Positions 4,000-42,486 of a DNA stretch of 46,166 nucleotides are shown one piece after another. Numbering within the stretch: position 1 is the first letter of the stretch; every line of letters starts with the position of its first letter. Source of the stretch: an uncultured Gammaproteobacteria bacterium (GTDB lineage: Bacteria > Patescibacteriota > Patescibacteriia > UBA11705 > JABHMO01); the NCBI GenBank assembly GCA_964565345.1, contig CAZMEQ010000007.1:1-46166 (forward strand), written 5' to 3'. Below the pieces are notes generated by a model. That model ran no database searches and was not told where the DNA came from. It saw nothing but the letters and a program-made list of their open reading frames with translations. Made by a program: the position numbers and the translations under genes.

Positions 4000-5013
4000 C
4001 TACTTAGAGCGTTTTTTAGTCTTTCCGCGTAAATGTTCAACTATCCTGCGTAATTTAGACTTCCCTCCCTTTTCTTCCAGCTCTTCGAATAAAACTGCCC
4101 AGGCACCGAGCTGAAATACTGCGTACCAACTACCCACTGAAACTAATAATATGGCAAATAGGATTGCGGCTATTAATACTATTACAACCATGCCAATCTT
4201 GGCCCCTGCGAGAAGGAATAAAAAATATAATAAAACTAATGGTGCCAACATTAGGAAAGATGCGATTGTAAATAGGGCAGCGACGATAAAGTTTATAACG
4301 AAAAGAAGCAGTCCCATTTCCAAGTTCAAAACAACATTTCTTTTAAACAAACCCCAAGCACGAGCTAAAGCTTCTAGCGCTGTTTTCTTTCTTAAGACTG
4401 CATAAGCAACGCCGTAAATGGTTAAGAAATAAATAATTATTCCAAGAACAATAAAAACAACAAATGAAATAATATATATTGCCTGTTGCCACAGAACACT
4501 CTCTACTCTTATTAATGAGACAAAGTAGCTTAACAAGACTAAAAAGCCCAACAAAATCACCTTAGTTATAACGTTAAGTTCTAACACAGGCCAAAACCTA
4601 TCGATCCCGACTTTGAGACATTTTTTAGGTTCCGCCTTTTTATTTTGATCAAATTCTATAAATCCCCTAATTAAAGCACCCTGACAAATAACACCAAAGC
4701 TAATGAGTAATGCTAAAATGATCAAAACAACAAGTAAAGTAAAAATACTCAATCCAAAAGCACTGGCATCAGCTTGCCAAAGCATTTTCATTTTACCCCA
4801 AGTGAGCATACTAAAAACGCCTGATTGGGCGTACTCACGTAAAGTATAAAAAACAGAGCGCCCTTCGGCCATATTATTAAAACTGCGTACCAAGGCTTCA
4901 TAAACACCGCCATTGCCAATGAAAGCTGCGAAAAAACCTAAAAGCCACAACCACTTGTTTTTTAAACTAATTTGCCAGGCTCTTTTTAAAATTGGACGAT
5001 AATAAGGAATCAT
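4000..5013 (-). CDS. Multi-pass membrane protein of unknown function
   Basis: 337-aa ORF with about 6-7 hydrophobic segments and a basic C-tail. Confidence 0.75.
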   Translation of the reverse strand: MIPYYRPILKRAWQISLKNKWLWLLGFFAAFIGNGGVYEALVRSFNNMAEGRSVFYTLREYAQSGVFSMLTWGKMKMLWQADASAFGLSIFTLLVVLIILALLISFGVICQGALIRGFIEFDQNKKAEPKKCLKVGIDRFWPVLELNVITKVILLGFLVLLSYFVSLIRVESVLWQQAIYIISFVVFIVLGIIIYFLTIYGVAYAVLRKKTALEALARAWGLFKRNVVLNLEMGLLLFVINFIVAALFTIASFLMLAPLVLLYFLFLLAGAKIGMVVIVLIAAILFAILLVSVGSWYAVFQLGAWAVLFEELEEKGGKSKLRRIVEHLRGKTKKRSK

Positions 5014-16025: not shown

Positions 16026-16355
16026 ATGTCAGAAAGAATGCCCCATGTTAATGAACGTATCCAGTTGGTGCTAGCCGAGGTGCTTTCCAAAGAAGCCGAA
16101 ATACCTTCTGATTTTTTTGTTTCTGTAGTAAAAGTAAAATGTGCGCCCAACCTAAAGAATGCCTGTGTTTTTCTAAGTATTTTCCCATTCGCTAAAGCTC
16201 AGGAAGGCTTGGAATTTATTAACAAAAACAAAAAGCGCATTCAAGGTTTATTTGGTGAGAAAGTTAATTTAAAATTCACTCCAATACTTGAATATCGTCT
16301 CGATGACACCGAAGAAATGACCGATAATATTTATCGTATAATAGATCATTTATGA
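16026..16355 (+). CDS. rbfA: Ribosome-binding factor A
   Basis: Size and pattern (ER..RVNERIQ, V.C.PNLK.A.VF, LKFTP.L.Y..D) of the RbfA KH fold; followed by a DHH gene as in the common rbfA-nrnA order. Confidence 0.85.
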   Translation: MSERMPHVNERIQLVLAEVLSKEAEIPSDFFVSVVKVKCAPNLKNACVFLSIFPFAKAQEGLEFINKNKKRIQGLFGEKVNLKFTPILEYRLDDTEEMTDNIYRIIDHL

Positions 16356-17302
16356 CCTCCTATCCGGCTGTTCTGGAAAAAATAAAATTAAGTTATAACA
16401 TCTTAATTATTTGCCACGAAAATCCTGACCCAGACACAATTGGAGCTGGTGGCGCGCTTCTTTATTACATAGAAGAAACTTATCCTTCTAAAAATGTCTT
16501 AATGGCCAGCGTCGATGCTTTACCACAGGATCTTTTTTTTCTCGGTATTCAAAAATTTTCTTCGGCCCTAGAAAATATTGATTTAAATAAATTTGATTTG
16601 GTAATTGCTGTTGATTGTGGCGAGCCACGAAGGACTGGAATACACCAAAAACTGGAGCTCATCAAAGATAAAATTTGTTTAATCAATATTGACCATCACG
16701 ACTCCAATAAAGGCTTCGGCGACATTAATATTGTAGAGATTGTTTCTTCGACTTGTGAAATTATTTATCGCCTTTTAAAATCACAAGGCATTACCATCAA
16801 TAAAAAGATTAGCACCTGTTTGTTGACTGGACTTACCTTCGATACTGCTTACTTCACTAATTCCGGAACAACTAAGGAATCGTTGGCCATTGCTTCAGAG
16901 CTTATGATGACAGCCGCGGATATTCGCTCCATTGTGCGCCACACTTTGAAAAATAAGACTAGAGACACGCTAAGACTGTGGGGCGAAGTTCTTAATCAAA
17001 TACATTACAACAGTAAATATCAAATTGCAGTAGCCGTTATTCCCAAAAACACTGAAATAAGTTCCGAGGTTTTTGATGACTTAAAAAATTATTATCTCCA
17101 ATATCTGCAAGAAGCAAAATTCATTATTGTTTTGCGTGAAGCTGCTGATGGTAAAATACATTGCAGTCTGCGCACCACCAGAAACGAGGTTAATGTGGCA
17201 AAATTAGCTGAAAAATTTGGTGGCGGTGGACACATTAAGTCGGCTGGCTTTTCCTTCTTTGGATCTCTTGAAAAAACAGCCACTGGTTGGCGCGTAAAAT
17301 AA
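16352..17302 (+). CDS. nrnA: DHH/DHHA1 phosphoesterase (nanoRNase/pAp phosphatase)
   Basis: HENPDPD, VDCG, IDHH and GGGH motifs. Confidence 0.85.
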   Translation: MTSYPAVLEKIKLSYNILIICHENPDPDTIGAGGALLYYIEETYPSKNVLMASVDALPQDLFFLGIQKFSSALENIDLNKFDLVIAVDCGEPRRTGIHQKLELIKDKICLINIDHHDSNKGFGDINIVEIVSSTCEIIYRLLKSQGITINKKISTCLLTGLTFDTAYFTNSGTTKESLAIASELMMTAADIRSIVRHTLKNKTRDTLRLWGEVLNQIHYNSKYQIAVAVIPKNTEISSEVFDDLKNYYLQYLQEAKFIIVLREAADGKIHCSLRTTRNEVNVAKLAEKFGGGGHIKSAGFSFFGSLEKTATGWRVK

Positions 17303-17387
17303 AAATGTACGGCCGCACGTGCGTGCGTAGGGACGGGTCACGACCCGGCCCTACAATGCAAATGCATTGTCCGTACATTTTTTATTT
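17298..17387. repeat. Composite palindromic repeat, copy 1 (four-way junction with central GTAG...CTAC hairpin)
   Basis: AAAAATGTACGG/CCGTACATTTTT outer stem, GCACG/CGTGC arm, GTAGGG.CGGGTC/GACCCG.CCCTAC arm, AATGC/GCATT arm. Homologous to 41709-41800. Confidence 0.85.
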
Positions 17388-17393
17388 GAAGCC

Positions 17394-19913
17394 TTACTTT
17401 TCCTCTGCTTCTTGGACCAGCGAGATACTGGCCACCTTATCGCCTGCGGCACGTAACCGCATCAATCGGACACCCTGGGTGTCACGGCCTAAAACGCTAA
17501 TGCTCTTAAATGGCAAACGAATTACTTGGCCTTTTTCCGAAATCACAATTACATCTTGATCAGAGCGTTCGCCCGCATCAACCATAAAGCCATTAACAAC
17601 CTTGCCTGTTTTGGCAGAAACTTTAGCCGTTCTAACACCGCTACCACCACGATTTTGTACTTTATAATATTTTAATTCACTGCGCTTACCATAACCCAAT
17701 TCAGTAATAACTAAAACTTGAAGATTTTTATTACTTGGATCAATAATACCCATACCCACAACTTCACCCTTACCTTTTATTTTGATACCACGAACGCCAG
17801 AGGCAGAGCGTCCCATTGGGCGAACCGCAGATTCTTTAAAGCGAATTGATTGGCCATTGTCTGTTATTAAACTAATTTCCTGCTTACCATTAGTTGCACC
17901 AACCCAACGCAATTTATCATCGCTCTTCAATTTAATTGCGATTAAGCCAGAACGACGGACATTAGAAAAATCTTCAATCGGCGTTTTCTTTATTACACCC
18001 TTCTCTGTAACCATTACTAGATTTTTTATTTCCGTAAGACTGTCAGAAGCCAACACAGTTGATACTTTTTCTAATTGCCCCAATTGAAGGAAATTTACTA
18101 GCGCTTGTCCTTTAGCCGTTCTAGACGCAACTGGGATATCGTACGCCTTCAAAAGAAATACTCGCCCTAAAGTCGTAAAGAACATTAAATCATTATGAGT
18201 CATGGTGCTAAAAAACTGTTCAACTACATCTTCTTCTTTTGTGGTTAGCCCAATAACCCCCTTGCCACCTCGTTTTTGTGCTTTAAAGGTATCAATTGGC
18301 ATTCTCTTAATATAACCATCCTTAGTGATGATGACTAACGTTGGTTCGTTTGGCACTAAATCCTCCTGGGAAAATTCACCAACAGCACCCTTGATAATTT
18401 TTGTACGCCGTTCGTCGCCAAACTTATCACGGATATCTTCTAGCTCTTCTTTTATTACACCTAGAATCTTCTTTTCTGATGCTAACAAGGCATTAAGATC
18501 CTTAATAATCTGCTGTTTTTCTTTTAATTCATTATCAATTTTGAGTTTCTCTAAGTTTGCTAGGTTTTGTAGTCGCATTTCAAGAATAGCCACGGCCTGA
18601 ACCTCAGTAAATTTAAATTTCTTCATTAAATTTTGCTTTGCTTCTTCTCTGTCCTTAGATTGCTTAATAATTTTAATAACCGCATCGATGTTGTCGATTG
18701 CTTTTTGCAAACCCTCTAAAATATGTGCTCGTTCGGCTGCTTTGCGCAATTCATATTCAGCTCGACGTCGTACTACTTCCTGACGATGTTTAACAAAATA
18801 AACGATAATGTCTTTTATATTTAAAACACGTGGCTGCAAACCATCAACCAAAGCCAACATATTTACATCGAAGTTAGACTGTAATTGAGTCAACTTAAAT
18901 AAACGATTCAAAACTTTTTTCGGGTATGCTTCTCGTTTTAAGTCAATCACAATTCGCACTCCATCTTTATCTGATTCATCACGGACATCACGGATACCTT
19001 CTAACTTTTTCAATTTAACTAACTCGGCGATTTTTTCTAACAAAGCAGCCTTGTTTATTTGATAAGGGACTTCATTAACAATAATTTGAAAATTGCCGGC
19101 TTTATTCTCAACGATATCAGTCTTAGCCCGCATGACAATCTTCCCCTTACCAGTTGTATAGGCCTGCTTAATTTCTTCAGCATTATAAATGATACCTCCA
19201 GTTGGGAAGTCTGGACCAGGAATAATTTTGATCAATTCTTCGATTTCGCAATCCGGATTTTCAATATAATGCACAATACCATTACACAACTCAGTTAAGT
19301 TATGTGGTGGAATCTTTGTTGCCATACCAACAGCAATACCCATGGTACCACTTAGCAACAAGTTAGGGAGTTTTGATGGAAGAACCTTGGGCTCTTTATG
19401 CGAACCATCATAGTTTGGGATAAAATCAACCGTATCTTTTTCTAAATCAAAAAGCATTTCTTCGGCAATTGCAGACAACTTTGCTTCCGTATAACGCATA
19501 GCAGCTGCTCCATCACCATCCATAGACCCAAAGTTACCTTGGCCATTAACGAGTGGGTAACGCATCGAAAAATTTTGTGCCATACGCACCATACTGTCAT
19601 AAACAGCCTGATCTCCATGAGGATGATATTTACCTAACACCTCACCGACAACAGTCGCTGATTTTCGGTATTTAGCATTAGCCTTTAACCCCACGTTCCA
19701 CATTGCATAAAGAATACGGCGATGCACTGGTTTCAAGCCATCTCTAACATCTGGTAAGGCACGAGCCACAATTACAGACATGGCATAATCAATGTAGCTG
19801 CTTTGCATTTCGTCCACAATAGAAACCCCACGTACCTTATCGTGTGATTCATCTTTGGGATCGTTATTCTCATTCTTGCTAATTGGTTTTCGGATCAATT
19901 TTCTTGCTTTCAT
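17394..19913 (-). CDS. gyrA: DNA gyrase subunit A
   Basis: [29 protein letters not shown] catalytic Tyr, GyrA-box QKRGGKG and beta-pinwheel repeats. Confidence 0.98.
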
Positions 19914-36657: not shown

Positions 36658-39600
36658 CTACTTAACAAGTGCATAGGCAATTGCTCGTAAAACACCCCAT
36701 GCATATGATGAACCAGGAACAGTTTTATAAACCTTCGTAAATATTGCCAAAGCCTGTTTTTCTTTTTCTAAGTCACGTACAACTGGTCGTAAACGATACG
36801 CTAGTATGTCGACAAAATTGCTTTCATTGGGTGTAACTAAGGTTGTTACTTTATTGGCGATGTTTTTAAACTCATTTAATGCTTCATCCTTTTGTGGGCT
36901 TAAAGTGTCTGGTTTTTGCCCTAAGTAAATTTTAGATAAATTGCTCCAATCATTTTCTGTTGAGGGAAGCCTCTTAAAGAGCTCATTATAATCATTTAAA
37001 AGACCCGCTCTGTCACGCAAGGTTAGCCTCGAGGTTACAGCATTGCCATAAGCCAAAAAATGAATGCTCTCCCAATCCTTCCCTGCAGGTAATCGTTTTA
37101 CTATTTTTACAAATTCATTTAAGGCTGTTTTTTCTAAATTGAGGTTTTGTACTGGTCTAAAAGGCATGTAAATTACCTCTTCCACTGTTTTATCTTTAAC
37201 TTCTTCCTTTATGAATTCTTTTGTTTCTTTGTCTGGCTGTTCTGTTTTTTGAGAAGGCAGGTCTACTGGCTCCTCTGATACTTGTTGCTCTTCCTGGTCA
37301 CCAAATAACCAATTCCACCAAGATGAACCTCTTGTGACAACCCTAGCTGGTTCAACGCCCGCCATGAAGCCAGTTAAATGGCGTGTCAAAATATAAACCA
37401 AATCATCTCCTCCTAATTGCTCTGCCACTACGTAACAATGTCCACCTTCATCTAGTTCAACGTCGGCATAATTATCTGGATTGAAAACTTCCCCAACTTG
37501 ATCTTCCGTGCACTCTGGTATCTCCTCCGTGGTATTGTCATAATAGCGAGTAGCAATAACTCTATTTGTCAAAGAAACAACCCCTGGATACTCAAATGAA
37601 ATCAAAACAGGCTTGCTTAACATTATGTTTGAGTTTAAACCACTGTTGAATTCAACTAAAATAGCTGAATTTATTAATCCAGAAATTTCAGCGCTTAAAT
37701 CTAAATCAACACTTTCAAAAAGGCCGCTCCAATCTTCACTCGTTGTAAAGGTAGTCCCACTAGCCGCTTTAAATGTTACTGGTTGTTCACCAACTAAAAT
37801 TTCCACATTAATAGGATCTACCACAGTACCTGCATAAATACCTCCACCCAAAGATTCCATTGAAATAGCCGGAATAATTGGATCTTCACCACCTTCTCCA
37901 AAATCAAGACTTATGGTACCAGAACCGACCTCACTAATATCAATCACACTTTCGTAAACCGAATAGACATCAGGATCGCCGTCTGGTGTTCCACCAGCAA
38001 ACCAAAAGGCTCCAACGGTTAAATTGTCTTGCCCCTCGACTAAAGGAACATACATTGTTGTACTCCCAGGCTCCGGCAAAATAACGATTCCACCTGGTTC
38101 ACCATCCATACTTTCACCATACCAGCCCGCAACATATATAGGCTGTTCTTCCCAATTAGTCCAAAGAACTTCGATATCCAACTCATAGTAATCTCCTTCT
38201 GGGATTTCGTTCCAAAGGGTATAGCCGCCTTCTTCTTCATCTTCCCCTAAATTAATTGTAATTGCGGAACTACCTACCGCACTGATATCAATTAAACTCT
38301 CATAGGTTTCTGAAACATCCGGATCGCCGTCGGAGTCGCCATCAGCAAACCAAGCCGCCTGAACCGTTAAACTGTCTTGGCCCTCAACTAACGGAATATA
38401 CAAGATCGTACTACCAGGCTGTGACAAGACAGCATAACCATCCGGAGAGCCTTCAGCTGTCGCGCCATACCAGCCCGCAACATAGATTGGCTGTTCTACC
38501 CAATCAGCCCAGAGGACTTCAACATCCAACTCATAATAATCCCCCGCTGGAACCTCGTCCCACAAAACAGCATCTTCTTCCTCCTGTTCATTAAAATCAA
38601 ATGTAACTGGTTTTAAATTCTCATCCAAAAGAAATTCCATTTCCTTGGCATCATAAAACTCATTTTGCAAAGAAGAAATTACAATTAGCCTTTGATCAAC
38701 AATACCTTCCGTTGTTTTCATAGCAACTGGTAAATAGGGAGAGTCTTCATCAAGATAACCATCTTCTAAACTCGTACGTGTGTTGTTGCCAAATTCGTTG
38801 CTGATTGTAATTTCGATACCGACGATTGGAATTTCGCCATTCATTACTCTAATAGTGGGAGAGTAGGCTAACAATAACGGTGCTGTGCCCTCCACTTGCG
38901 CCGCCTCAAACGTACTCCATGGAACCACAATCATATTACCATCGGAATCAGCCGTACTATAGACATCATAAATAGAAGAATTTGAAACATTCCCAATAAA
39001 GGCATTATTTGACGAGCTCCCAGACACCCAAAAACCATAGCTAGAAGAATCTATTTCGACATTTTCAAATGCATTACTAATTGAATCAGCAACTTTAATT
39101 CCGGCATAATAGGCCTGTTCTCCTGAGATATAAAATGGATCAGAAGATCCTTCAGCTATACTAACTCCAGCCGCCAAAAATAAACCTTCATTATAAGTAT
39201 AAGAACTTCCGGAACTTGAAATAGCGTCCTCAATAAAAACAGCAACTGCCACCTCACTCATCTCAAACGCCGCTTCTATGTCACCAGCTGAAGAAAACTT
39301 AGAATCTTTTACAAATAGAGCGAATAACATTTCTCCGTCATCTATAAGTGCAAAGTCCAAATTTTCTTCTGGATAATTGCTCAGAACGTCAGTAACATCC
39401 GTGTTGTTTTCACTAATTTCGCAGATATACTTAGGACAATTATCTGGATCAAGAATCCCCAGAGTAGTGTATTGAACTGCCTCATAAGTAAAAACAGAAT
39501 ACCCAGCTGAATATACAAAATTCGTATCTGTGGCTCCCTGAATTAACATGTTTTCGAAATAATTATTATCTGAATTATTTAGATAAATACTGTTACTATT

Positions 39601-41580
39601 TAAAGGGGCGTCGATAATTGTTGTTTCTCCAGCCCCTGTAATAGTCATGTTATTTTTATCTTCCAAGACAATGCCACCATTATAAGTCCCGTCAGCGATG
39701 TAAACCGTATCTCCACTTCTTAAGGATTCTATAATATCTGTATTATTAGCATGTACAGTTTCATAATCAACTTCAGCATCATCGTCGATATAAATAGTCG
39801 TAATACGTTCAGCAGAATATGCCCCAATATCATCAGTCCCATTAACATCTAATAATAAGCTCATTGGCGCTAACTCTAAAGTATCACCCATAAATATTGG
39901 ATCAACATTATACAAATTATTTGCACCATTAGTTACTGAAACCTCATAAGTATAATCGCCCCAATCTTCAACTGATGACGAATCCGAGATTATGTCATTA
40001 TAATCATAACTAAAAGTCACAGAAGTATTATCACAATTTTTTTGGTATACAACAGGGGTTGTTTTCCCACTAACAATAATAATGTTGTTATTAACCAAAC
40101 CAGTTACTGTTTCCGTATTACTACTGTGTGATTCTGGTGTGGGGCATTGAACGTCCGCAAAATGTATTGCAACCGAACTACCAGAATCAACACCACCAAA
40201 ATCAATTGTATTATTTTCAACTGTAAACGAAGCTGAATCTTCCACAATATCAGAACGCCCCACTAAATCGATTACCCTTATATACACTTCAGTTTCGGCC
40301 TCCGGATATGAAATATAATTACCACTAATTACTGCGTGGCCAGCCGCTGCTATGGCTCCACCAAACGCATCATCAGTTATTTCTGTATGATATGTGAAGT
40401 AATTATTTTGGATGTAATTAACACTGGTTGAAGTGCCTATTAAATCGGTGATGAGCGATGAGTTAAACACATCTGTCCCATAATAGACATCAACGCTGTT
40501 TCCAATAAATTCAAAATCTTCAATAAAGATAGGTCCACCAGCTATTAATTTACCACCACAATCACCCCCACCCCACGCACAAAACTCAATTCCTTCATTT
40601 AATATGAATTCATTATCGGAGACAACTGCCCCCGGAGCACTTATTTTTAAGCCAATATCTTCAAAAGCACAATTTTGTATTGTTGTACCAGGTCCATTAA
40701 TCTGGAAATAATTATCCGCATTAACGAATTCTACCAATGACGGGGTACTGATAGAGACATCATCCAAATAAGCAAACATGTTTGGGCCAGGAATCATAAA
40801 TATTAAGGTAATAGTTCCACTTTCTGGAACAGGGATATCTGCTATAGCCCATTGTTCATACCCACCCTCCATTGGAGGCACTCCAACGGACCACATACGT
40901 CCCGGCCCAGGAGTAAAAATTGTGTCTTCCCCAAGTGCGGTCCAACCGCCTTCAAGTCCAAAATTATAATATTCAGTTTCGTTGCCCCAACTGTCATTTG
41001 ACAAATAGGTAAAAATATCACTGCCCATGCCCCCTGTGCCCTTAACATAAAAAGAGATATCCATTAATTCTCTAGGGATTAAACCTGTTATTGTTTGTCT
41101 GACATGATAACCTAGACTATCGCCATCATTTAGAAGATAAAACGCATTACTGCCACTGTTAGCATTTTCAAACACTTGAGCAAAAGTTCCAGTTCCTGGT
41201 GACCCAGGCATACCCGAGGCTCCAGTAGCCCAAGTATCTCCGAGTTCAAGTTCAAAGCCACCGTTGTTTACAACTTCCTCCGGGTCTCCGGCTGACCATC
41301 GGCCAAAGCTAAAGTTATTACTTTGGCAATCGACAGTTAAGTCCGCGGTCTCAGGAAAGACAACTGGATATGATTCTGCCTGTGGATTATATGTGTCTGA
41401 CAAAACTATGGTGTCTCCTAATTGTGCTATAGCTAAGGCATCAGCCAAAGTACTTTCACCGCCCTCTCCAACAGTAATCGTGCCAGGAACATCAGCCAAA
41501 GCCTGATAAACCACCAACGCGGTACAAATAAAACAGACCAATAAGCTCAAAACCAGGATATTAATTTTGTTTTTTTGCAT
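36658..41580 (-). CDS. Very large acidic secreted/surface protein (about 1640 aa)
   Basis: Signal peptide ending ALA-D, CBM-like segment (NNGGFE...W), beta-helix-like segments (VYIADGTY...ITGAG), tandem 116-aa repeats, helical C-terminal repeats. ATG 41580 is preferred over TTG 41586. Confidence 0.85.
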   Translation of the reverse strand: MQKNKINILVLSLLVCFICTALVVYQALADVPGTITVGEGGESTLADALAIAQLGDTIVLSDTYNPQAESYPVVFPETADLTVDCQSNNFSFGRWSAGDPEEVVNNGGFELELGDTWATGASGMPGSPGTGTFAQVFENANSGSNAFYLLNDGDSLGYHVRQTITGLIPRELMDISFYVKGTGGMGSDIFTYLSNDSWGNETEYYNFGLEGGWTALGEDTIFTPGPGRMWSVGVPPMEGGYEQWAIADIPVPESGTITLIFMIPGPNMFAYLDDVSISTPSLVEFVNADNYFQINGPGTTIQNCAFEDIGLKISAPGAVVSDNEFILNEGIEFCAWGGGDCGGKLIAGGPIFIEDFEFIGNSVDVYYGTDVFNSSLITDLIGTSTSVNYIQNNYFTYHTEITDDAFGGAIAAAGHAVISGNYISYPEAETEVYIRVIDLVGRSDIVEDSASFTVENNTIDFGGVDSGSSVAIHFADVQCPTPESHSSNTETVTGLVNNNIIIVSGKTTPVVYQKNCDNTSVTFSYDYNDIISDSSSVEDWGDYTYEVSVTNGANNLYNVDPIFMGDTLELAPMSLLLDVNGTDDIGAYSAERITTIYIDDDAEVDYETVHANNTDIIESLRSGDTVYIADGTYNGGIVLEDKNNMTITGAGETTIIDAPLNSNSIYLNNSDNNYFENMLIQGATDTNFVYSAGYSVFTYEAVQYTTLGILDPDNCPKYICEISENNTDVTDVLSNYPEENLDFALIDDGEMLFALFVKDSKFSSAGDIEAAFEMSEVAVAVFIEDAISSSGSSYTYNEGLFLAAGVSIAEGSSDPFYISGEQAYYAGIKVADSISNAFENVEIDSSSYGFWVSGSSSNNAFIGNVSNSSIYDVYSTADSDGNMIVVPWSTFEAAQVEGTAPLLLAYSPTIRVMNGEIPIVGIEITISNEFGNNTRTSLEDGYLDEDSPYLPVAMKTTEGIVDQRLIVISSLQNEFYDAKEMEFLLDENLKPVTFDFNEQEEEDAVLWDEVPAGDYYELDVEVLWADWVEQPIYVAGWYGATAEGSPDGYAVLSQPGSTILYIPLVEGQDSLTVQAAWFADGDSDGDPDVSETYESLIDISAVGSSAITINLGEDEEEGGYTLWNEIPEGDYYELDIEVLWTNWEEQPIYVAGWYGESMDGEPGGIVILPEPGSTTMYVPLVEGQDNLTVGAFWFAGGTPDGDPDVYSVYESVIDISEVGSGTISLDFGEGGEDPIIPAISMESLGGGIYAGTVVDPINVEILVGEQPVTFKAASGTTFTTSEDWSGLFESVDLDLSAEISGLINSAILVEFNSGLNSNIMLSKPVLISFEYPGVVSLTNRVIATRYYDNTTEEIPECTEDQVGEVFNPDNYADVELDEGGHCYVVAEQLGGDDLVYILTRHLTGFMAGVEPARVVTRGSSWWNWLFGDQEEQQVSEEPVDLPSQKTEQPDKETKEFIKEEVKDKTVEEVIYMPFRPVQNLNLEKTALNEFVKIVKRLPAGKDWESIHFLAYGNAVTSRLTLRDRAGLLNDYNELFKRLPSTENDWSNLSKIYLGQKPDTLSPQKDEALNEFKNIANKVTTLVTPNESNFVDILAYRLRPVVRDLEKEKQALAIFTKVYKTVPGSSYAWGVLRAIAYALVK
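37884..38565 (-). repeat. Two tandem 116-aa (348-bp) domain repeats inside the surface protein
   Basis: LWDEVPAGDYYELDVEVLWADWVEQPIYVAGWYG... versus LWNEIPEGDYYELDIEVLWTNWEEQPIYVAGWYG...; about 70 of 108 positions identical by hand alignment. Confidence 0.9.
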
Positions 41581-41708
41581 ATACAAAAAAATTTTATGGA
41601 TAATGCTGCATTACATTTATATTATACCACATTTTTAACGCCCCCCCCAGTTTGACTTGACTAGTTCTGTGGATATTGTTATTTATAAATACCTAAAAAC
41701 AGAAGCGG

Positions 41709-41800
41709 AAATAAAAAATGTACGGCCGCACGTTCGTGCGGTAGGGAACAAAGATTTTTGTTCCCTACAATGCGTATGCATTGTCCGTACATTTTTTATT
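41709..41800. repeat. Composite palindromic repeat, copy 2
   Basis: Same outer stem and side arms as 17298-17387, with central hairpin GTAGGGAACAAA/TTTGTTCCCTAC. Lies right after the rpsR stop. Confidence 0.85.
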
Positions 41801-41802
41801 CT

Positions 41803-42021
41803 TTATCTATTTACAAACGGTAAAATTGCCATTATTCTAGCTCTTTTTATGGCTAAAACCAACTTACGCTGATGAGTGCTACATGTGCCAGTCCTTTTTT
41901 TAGGTAGAATCTTGGCATATGAAGATAAGAATTTACGTAATAATTGGGCATCTTTGAAGTCAACGTCCTTGACTCCATTAACGCAGAAGTAGCAACGTCT
42001 GTCTTTTTTGGTATTGTTCAT
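41803..42021 (-). CDS. rpsR: 30S ribosomal protein S18, with CxxC...C..H zinc-type residues
   Basis: CYFC, DFKD..LL.KF.S...KILP...TG.C..HQR.L..AIKRAR. Confidence 0.97.
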   Translation of the reverse strand: MNNTKKDRRCYFCVNGVKDVDFKDAQLLRKFLSSYAKILPKKRTGTCSTHQRKLVLAIKRARIMAILPFVNR

Positions 42022-42039
42022 AATATTAATTGGAATTTA

Positions 42040-42486
42040 TTAGAAAGGGATGTTCTCCACCTTAATTTCCTCTTCATCTTCCTGTTCTATTGTAGGTAGC
42101 TCTGTATTTTGAGCCTCTGCAACAAACGAATTGTTTGAGCGTGGAGAACCCTCTCCTCCAACACGATCTAACATGATCATGTTATCAGCGATAACTTCGG
42201 TCCTGTAACGTTTAACACCGTCTTGTCCATCCCAACTACGTGTTTGTAATCTACCTTCAATATAGACCTTACTGCCCTTTTTCAAATATTGAGCACAAAT
42301 CTCAGCTAATTTACGCCAAACAACAACATTATGATATTCAACCTTCTCTTGTTTTTGTCCATTATTATCTGTCCAGACATAATTGGTGGCGACACTGAAG
42401 GCTGAAACTGAAGTTCCTTGGGGGGTTGTTCGTGTTTCTGGGTCAGAAGTTAAACGGCCAATAATCATCGCTTTATTTAAATCCAT
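42040..42486 (-). CDS. ssb: Single-stranded DNA-binding protein
   Basis: NK....[18 protein letters not shown], acidic C-terminal IPF tail. Confidence 0.97.

Follow-up and report, generated by a model that had tools for sequence, protein, structure and literature searches.

Two branched elements at gene ends of a Parcubacteria genome: putative bidirectional terminators built around a REP-type hairpin

The 46,166-nt contig CAZMEQ010000007.1 (assembly GCA_964565345.1; this whole stretch is called the window) carries two elements of about 90 nt, 24 kb apart, each predicted to fold into a four-way junction in which an outer stem closes two side hairpins and a GTAG-tagged central arm. Both elements were confirmed at the positions where the original prediction, made from the window alone, had placed them. 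The closest protein homologues carry Patescibacteria or Parcubacteria names, and the host is a compact, AT-rich Parcubacteria genome. Copy 1 is flanked by a DHH/DHHA1 (NrnA-like) gene on the + strand (16352..17302), which ends in the element, and by the convergent gyrA gene on the − strand (17394..19913). Copy 2 lies upstream of a gene for a 1642-aa protein and 5 nt downstream of the TAA of rpsR (ribosomal protein S18, 72 aa; 41803..42021, − strand), which follows ssb (42040..42486, − strand); copy 2 therefore ends the rpsF-ssb-rpsR operon. The rpsR gene had been missed by a list of open reading frames with an 80-aa limit. Both copies had been said to follow a stop codon immediately, which is true of copy 1 on the + strand, but for copy 2 it is true only on the − strand, and no real + strand gene ends there. 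The 1642-aa protein encoded directly downstream of copy 2 (36658-41586, − strand) had no Pfam match at E 1e-3. The remaining gene-end hairpins in the window are plain units of an A-tract, a 7-13-bp stem and a T-tract.

The outer stem of copy 1 pairs 17301-17312 with 17371-17382. Its 5' strand, an A-tract followed by AATGTACGG (17296..17312), contains the TAA of the DHH/DHHA1 gene at 17300-17302, and its 3' strand, CCGTACAT followed by a T-tract (17371..17386), precedes the gyrA stop codon at 17394-17396 (− strand). Between these strands lie a left side hairpin, CCGCACG-TG-CGTGCG (17313..17327), a central arm (17327..17354) and a right side hairpin, ACAATGC-AAAT-GCATTGT (17353..17370). The central arm, GTAGGGACGGGTCACGACCCGGCCCTAC, is a 28-nt double-foot GTAG hairpin of the repetitive extragenic palindrome (REP) type with a GC-rich core, called core B here. 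It contains one A/G mismatch and is therefore slightly decayed.

Copy 2 is built in the same way. Its outer strands are AATAAAAAATGTACGG (41710..41725), which forms the U-tract side when read on the − strand, and CCGTACATTTTTTATT (41785..41800), which on the − strand supplies the A-tract after the rpsR stop codon. They enclose a left hairpin, CCGCACG-TT-CGTGCGG (41726-41741), a 28-nt double-foot GTAG central arm with an AT-rich core, GTAGGGAACAAAGATTTTTGTTCCCTAC (core A; 41741..41768), and a right hairpin, ACAATGC-GTAT-GCATTGT (41767..41784). The left hairpin and core A together make up a 41-nt module (41726..41766) that is absent from a closely similar allele in run X8. In both copies the closing stem is 12-13 bp long and flanked by A6-7 and T6-7, and the central arm stands on the same 7-bp feet, GTAGGGA...TCCCTAC. 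Differences between the two copies are confined to the distal 14 nt of the central arm, the two side loops and one G. The shared outer stem and side hairpins are thus as originally described, whereas the central arms, described as perfect or near-perfect, include the mismatch in copy 1. The outer inverted repeat AATAAAAAATGTACGG/CCGTACATTTTTTATT provides an A-tract, the closing stem and a U-tract on either strand, and the stop codon of the adjoining gene often comes from it as well.

Neither the outer stem nor the feet recur by chance in this DNA. The pattern ATGTACGG-N50-75-CCGTACAT matched exactly twice in the 46-kb window and never in 100 shuffles, and GTAGGG-N-CCCTAC occurred exactly twice against 0.01 expected. 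The four-way junction was found on both strands of both copies, with z-scores of -5.8 to -10.9 for RNA and -6.4 to -11.4 for DNA folding. For copy 1 on the + strand, the minimum-energy RNA fold was an alternative structure and the DNA fold was the junction.

We scanned metagenomes with a 10+10 outer-stem pattern and found four true relatives amid chance matches. One lies between genes for DUF7544 and PEGA-domain proteins (L127, core A) and one between rpsT and holA (L135, core A), both at convergent gene ends. The third stands right after an ABC ATPase gene in the opposite orientation (L148, core B), and the fourth, with decayed side arms, stands at convergent gene ends before a penicillin-binding protein (PBP) transpeptidase gene (L160, core B). 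All four are at gene ends, at loci unrelated to one another, and at L127 and L135 the conserved outer repeat contains both convergent genes' stop codons. In total, related metagenomic Parcubacteria have the family, with compensatory changes in its arms, at five gene-end loci besides those of the window, and also at the DHH-gyrA site itself. Core A is thus found in copy 2, L127 and L135, and core B in copy 1, L148 and L160. The two side hairpins co-vary between lineages, and the side-arm sequence goes with the genome and not with the type of core. In the window, identical arms carry core A in one copy and core B in the other, and metagenome Ga0076118 likewise contains both types (L127 with A, L160 with B). 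A conserved scaffold with exchangeable cores, as originally proposed, is therefore borne out, since relatives carry the same scaffold with either core and one has a REP nested in the central foot. The idea that all further copies might share a single core does not fit, as both types recur. That only two copies exist, with no transposase gene, holds within the window but not across relatives.

Searching the window and the relatives' DNA examined with a covariance model of the family brought up no further full copies, and in run X1, the best source of the window sequence, only the two known loci share the scaffold. The organism is present in wastewater, landfill and sludge samples (runs X1-X10). 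Scanning a genome collection with an 8+8 outer-stem pattern gave chance matches only. An 11+11 pattern gave one chance match, which shows that the window genome and its four-way relatives are absent from that collection. Viral contigs contained no scaffold, no core A and only four core-B matches, and a phage origin of the element was rejected. We also rejected a MITE, a miniature transposable element with inverted repeats, because no direct repeat that would mark a target-site duplication flanks any of the seven full copies, despite the 16-bp inverted repeat.

In an alignment of six family members, a small and related sample, 95% of the cells pair, nine pairs have changed on both sides, and the covariation score was reached in none of 500 shuffles. 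This shows that pairing has been maintained, and it does not identify the agent that maintains it. A very stable, conserved four-way fold with compensatory changes, located in transcribed 3' regions, is what a strand-specific structured RNA would leave behind, whether a cloverleaf module of the 3' untranslated region or a small RNA that acts in trans or recruits a protein. However, folding is equal on both strands, the orientation relative to the upstream gene differs among loci (copy 1 and L135 versus copy 2 and L148), stems and feet rather than loops are conserved, and unrelated plain hairpins occupy the same sites in relatives. Rfam gave no match in the window at the gathering threshold and only a chance snoRNA match (E 3.3) in E-value mode, and ARAGORN found no tRNA or tmRNA; a tRNA-like or otherwise known RNA identity was therefore rejected. 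Nothing points to the structured 3' RNA module that had been offered as one reading of these elements, and we regard a strand-specific RNA as very unlikely.

Strand symmetry would also be expected of a target recognized as DNA. A nucleoid protein, a topoisomerase or a junction-specific protein could, for example, bind the extruded cruciform or four-way junction, or an Ssn-type GIY-YIG single-strand nuclease could act there, and E. coli REPs are reported to bind several DNA proteins (PMC2817692). The recognition motif of the Ssn nuclease (SRM/NTS) consists of CGTC-tagged hairpins (PMC11893778). Its degenerate pattern, HGTCWY...RNCYNB (PMC11893778), was matched nowhere in the window, the two elements included; neither copy has a nuclease gene beside it, and an Ssn target was rejected. 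A generic DNA-binding site explains less than a terminator does, as it leaves the A/T tracts and the gene-end position unaccounted for and is otherwise indistinguishable from it. We consider a DNA-level protein target highly improbable.

The gene-end position, the A/T tracts and the plain terminators at orthologous sites make a bidirectional terminator composed of REP-type hairpins the better functional reading. On both strands a stable stem is followed directly by a U-tract, and both copies lie at the 3' ends of transcription units whose orthologous sites carry terminators. Judged from sequence comparison, each copy is probably a bidirectional intrinsic terminator with its stem enlarged to a four-way junction that includes a REP-type arm.

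Orthologous sites were retrieved through the flanking proteins. At the DHH-gyrA site, a relative with 78% DHH identity (L400) has the full four-way structure, with the same outer stem, the orthologous left arm and a right arm in which a compensated C-G pair replaces T-A. In the central arm of L400, a complete core-B-like REP is nested in an older foot, GTAGGGAC[GTAGGGACAGGTCTAGACCTGTCCCTAC TG]GTCCCTAC (fold z-score -12.8). L394 (79%; the same locus as L336, GW2011_GWA2_40_23) retains only the outer stem and the left arm, which is orthologous to that of copy 1 as well. L393 (80%) has the outer stem around a degenerate remnant of the right arm, and L392 (85%) has a remnant, TACAATGCAAT, beside an unrelated hairpin. 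L395 and L401 carry unrelated plain terminators. All these alleles other than L400 are thus plain or degenerate hairpins with T-tracts. The comparison shows that the branched element is ancestral at this site in the clade with at least 78% DHH identity and has been decaying by deletion, and that the deletions remove the core and one arm while leaving a plain hairpin that is still terminator-like. The four-way state of L400 therefore makes the plain hairpin of L394 a deletion derivative and rules it out as an empty site.

At the rpsR site, the X8 allele, which is about 93% identical, lacks exactly window positions 41726-41766 (the left arm and core A) and has instead a perfect 19-bp hairpin, AAAAATGTACGGACAATGC-AAAT-GCATTGTCCGTACATTTTT. 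Other hairpins stand at rpsR in more distant relatives: in L396 the difference is confined to the part between AAAAATGT and ACGTTTTT, and in L397 a lone GTAG double-foot hairpin between A7 and T7 forms the terminator. The comparison therefore shows that the GTAC-type element, copied onto this second terminator, reached the site only in the lineage of the window and X8, where it replaced the interior of an older terminator. Viewed over all sites, the central arm evidently turns over, being core A, core B or a REP nested in an old foot, and in two relatives the core is missing along with one arm.

Two further observations were made among these relatives. The rpsR terminator of another relative (L402:1655-1735) has a different GC-rich branched structure between A7 and T8, and elaborate terminators therefore seem common in this clade. 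A dispersed non-coding repeat of about 120-250 nt with a MITE-like look and the ends CGTCATTGCGAG...CTCGCAATGACG lies beside terminators in several relatives, with 76-84% identity (L395:10951-11215; L398:3846-3966 and 4467-4550; L135:10669-10724).

That the central arms are GTAG-tagged REP-type palindromes, as had been predicted, is supported. The published description of subclass 2.4 of the TnpA-REP proteins, which equals group 4 of the REP-associated tyrosine transposases (RAYTs), gives the protein motifs NH[IFV]H, WQ and YIxNNP, 'double-foot' REPs with 5' GT[AG]G and 3' C[TC]AC, in-frame insertion of REPs between the HuH and Tyr motifs, and a scattered distribution across phyla (PMC6006769). 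Both copies have such feet in GTAGGG...CCCTAC, and both have three consecutive G-C pairs at the bottom of the stem (GGG/CCC after GTA) and a length of 28 nt, within the usual range of about 20-40 nt. The dispersion in many copies that is expected of REPs was not seen, there being two GTAGGG hairpins in 46 kb.

The core B hairpin, GTAGGGACAGGTCGCGACCTGTCCCTAC, was found in at least 120 stretches of species-representative genomes from about ten phyla. The organisms among the matches listed belong to Bacteroidota, Patescibacteria, Nitrospinota, Gemmatimonadota, Spirochaetota, Gammaproteobacteria, Fibrobacter, Calditrichia, Ignavibacteria, Nitrospirales and Orenia. An identical 26-mer, TAGGGACAGGTCGCGACCTGTCCCTA, is present in 94 of the 126 matches listed, the variants being mostly compensatory, and the flanking G...C that completes GTAG...CTAC is present in 118 of the 126. 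We rejected the notion that this REP always forms the tip of a longer palindrome: 15 of 122 core-B matches extend by 4 bp or more, versus 2 of 120 controls, an enrichment and not a rule.

At 16 loci (L228, L179 and 14 more) the core-B hairpin lies within or adjoins a small gene. The gene at L228 reads PNHIHGIVEINDHM-VGTGRDLSL-QQQQ...WQRSFHDH...YIQKNP, matches the NCBIfam entry for REP-associated tyrosine transposases (NF047646) at E 1.9e-17, below the equivalog cut-off, and faintly also the E. coli TnpA-REP structure 4ER8. A gene from Magasanikbacteria, a lineage of the Candidate Phyla Radiation (CPR), encodes a 204-aa protein (L179); it contains one core-B copy, read in another frame, and has a second one 30 nt (31-nt gap) upstream. 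Its homologues in several Patescibacteria and in Pontibacter and relatives are named RayT or IS200-like. Core B thus adjoins or sits inside tnpA-REP genes in other genomes, and since it matches the description of subclass 2.4 it is a known kind of element, a REP which on its sequence features would be of the TnpA-REP subclass 2.4 type. About 45% of the core-B matches listed (L167-L286) lie inside open frames of at least 150 aa, which suggests frequent in-frame insertion of core B in genes.

Core A has in common with core B only the 28-nt length and the 7-bp foot GTAGGGA/TCCCTAC. It was not found outside the family in the searched collections, viral contigs included, and was never seen with a RAYT gene. 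A literature search with the core sequence gave no match. Related hairpins were noticed in two other settings. In a Patescibacteria metagenome-assembled genome (MAG), a core-B copy has, 54 nt upstream of it, a third 28-nt variant of the GTAG double-foot hairpin, GTAGGGGCAATTCATGAATTGCCCCTAC (L168:6582-6609), which shows more core diversity on the same foot. The coding region of another RAYT-like gene (L150:1590-2249 and L132:2983-3300) contains two unlike GC hairpins, GGGCGGGTC..GACCCGCCC and GGGCGACTC..GAGTCGCCC, enclosed by a foot, GTACGGGCG, that starts with AAATGTACGG, as does the window scaffold.

The outer foot GTACGGAC of the scaffold resembles the REP foot GTAGGGAC, and Saprospiraceae genomes have core B with GTAC feet, for example L367, which reads GTACGGACAGGTCGCGACCTGTCCGTAC. 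L292 and L340, too, are core B with GTAC feet. CPR matches to the scaffold foot were found at L296, L336 and L386. From this likeness and from core B on GTAC feet, we therefore place the scaffold hairpin, including its outer GTACGGAC foot, as a putative member of the same hairpin superfamily as the REP. Plain AAATGTACGG...CCGTACATTT hairpins were found in 98 stretches of unrelated genomes, roughly as many as chance and the commonness of terminator hairpins would yield, and of these only the two sets just named (L367, L292 and L340; L296, L336 and L386) were drawn on. A hairpin family in several copies, AAATGTACGGCGAAATCGTA-N6-TACGATTTCGCCGTACATTT, whose 10-nt foot is that of the window scaffold, was observed in a Ruminococcaceae MAG (L291, L293, L304, L341, L342 and L357) and in other rumen MAGs, and no RAYT gene was seen adjoining it. 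Palindromes of about 90 nt made of repeated ATCCGTGAAA/GGATTTCACGGATT units, with the ends GGATGTACGG...CCGTACATCC, were found at six or more loci (L001, L051, L070, L072, L076 and L094), of which the first five belong to one Bacteroidota MAG (contigs JBDLWG01...).

The original prediction had also considered a composite mobilised by a RAYT. Core B inside and beside RAYT genes of other phyla fits this part, but no RAYT gene is present in the window or in the relatives' DNA examined, and the window has two copies only. In the strong form of this idea, the whole element, or the 41-nt module of small hairpin plus GTAG core, is an active non-autonomous transposon served by a RAYT/TnpA-REP encoded elsewhere; it would prefer the feet of GTAC/GTAG hairpins, and the terminator position would be a tolerated landing site. 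The clean 41-nt presence/absence difference between close strains (copy 2 versus X8), the exact nesting of the L400 REP inside another REP foot, a new copy at the rpsR terminator in the window and X8 lineage only, and RAYT homologues in Patescibacteria speak for it. Set against these, no RAYT was seen in any of this clade's DNA examined, the copy number is two (with the scaffold at only the two known loci in run X1), and the four-way state at the DHH-gyrA locus is old, as L400 indicates, which makes L394 a deletion rather than an empty site. Studied TnpA-REP enzymes are reported to cleave at a C|T dinucleotide (PMC8266576), a site to which the ends of the indel (GG^CC ... CT^AC on the + strand, GT^AG ... 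GG^CC on the − strand) gave no convincing match. An active transposon thus appears unlikely.

Continuing with the terminator, we envisage that, on transcription from either side, the inner hairpins would fold first and the outer stem would then close just ahead of the U-tract, upon which polymerase would be released. The bulky 3' structure would probably protect the mRNA end as well, and the three inner hairpins may be passengers or stabilisers tolerated in the stem. The cores might be delivered by RAYT-type single-strand DNA cleavage and joining at the hairpin feet, or might enter by recombination or template switching between hairpins with common feet. More specifically, the GTA[G/C]GGAC feet could serve as landing pads for a RAYT-type single-strand DNA cut-and-join enzyme that swaps whole hairpin cassettes, a tentative idea to which we give a low probability. 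Exchange of this kind would cover both the 28-nt core placed inside a foot in L400 and the 41-nt two-hairpin module placed inside a GTAC foot in copy 2 as compared with X8.

Several points weigh against a terminator with a REP-type arm. A simple terminator scanner does not flag the branched stems, as it accepts only loops of 3-8 nt, and the three metatranscriptomes of the source study contain no contig from this organism. Plain hairpins serve the relatives, which leaves a selective reason for three inner hairpins unexplained. Exchange of the cores would be read from end states only. No RAYT gene was found in the window or in the stretches of the relatives' contigs examined, and two detectable copies in the window are far below classical REP numbers.

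Taken together, the comparison shows that the four-armed, GC-rich 'islands' at CPR gene ends are composites of a predicted terminator and a REP and not new RNA genes. To our knowledge, REPs and RAYT transposases have been studied almost only in Proteobacteria, and a REP of the RAYT group-4 type is now placed in the ultra-small CPR genomes. There it is built into the working stem of predicted terminators and turns over by swap, nesting and loss between close relatives, so that the mobility of REPs and their service to the host can be asked about in a concrete case. A near-invariant 28-nt REP hairpin across many phyla goes against the usual account of REPs as species-specific. The simplest explanation of this invariance would be that the hairpin travels within its own transposase gene. 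If cassette exchange were true, terminator stems would be modular, enzyme-edited structures, and a RAYT gene with its own in-frame REP would seed the 28-nt hairpin anew, almost unchanged, in about ten phyla. It would be the first case of REP-into-REP cassette exchange and would account for one REP sequence common to many phyla. The main point of interest is whether this exchange is enzyme-driven, since the same mechanism could explain the invariance of the core.

Compared with the double-foot REPs of subclass 2.4 (PMC6006769), the central arms have the same 5' GTAG and 3' CTAC complement, the same three G-C pairs at the bottom of the stem and a similar hairpin length of about 28 nt. Core B is, as in that subclass, a hairpin that lies in frame between HuH and Tyr motifs in transposase genes of the NH[IV]H / WQ / Y[IV]xxNP kind, or adjoins such genes, in Bacteroidota and CPR. 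In contrast to those REPs, which are free-standing or dimeric and number tens to hundreds, the REP here is the central arm of a four-way junction inside a terminator stem and is present in two copies. No cognate transposase gene was found in the DNA of this lineage that was examined, and the AT-rich core A variant shares only the 7-bp foot. A further difference is that one 26-nt core is nearly the same in about ten phyla, in contrast to the species-specific nature ascribed to REPs.

The bacterial interspersed mosaic elements (BIMEs) and the REP doublets forming hairpins (REPINs) of Proteobacteria, which are REPs in clusters or inverted pairs, are likewise composites of REP hairpins between convergent or co-directional genes (PMC2817692, PMC3733652). 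They can fold into larger secondary structures, and REP ends can supply stop codons (PMC2817692, PMC3733652). The elements described here differ in having one GTAG REP each, with side arms that lack the GTAG tag, and in having their arms inside a separate outer stem with A/T tracts instead of alternating or inverted REP pairs. BIME or REPIN membership, which needs at least two inverted or alternating REPs, was therefore rejected. Bidirectional intrinsic terminators share with them the A-tract, stem and T-tract between convergent genes, and ordinary examples stand at the orthologous sites. Here, however, the stem encloses a multiloop of three hairpins where ordinary terminators have a short loop, and, unlike theirs, its 16-bp outer repeat is found again at unrelated loci and in other genomes. 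The REP type and the terminator type are thus both known, and the new part, a probable terminator of a CPR lineage that has become a four-way junction with a REP of the subclass-2.4 type at its centre and whose core has turned over, is best filed as a variation on these known types and not as a new class of element.

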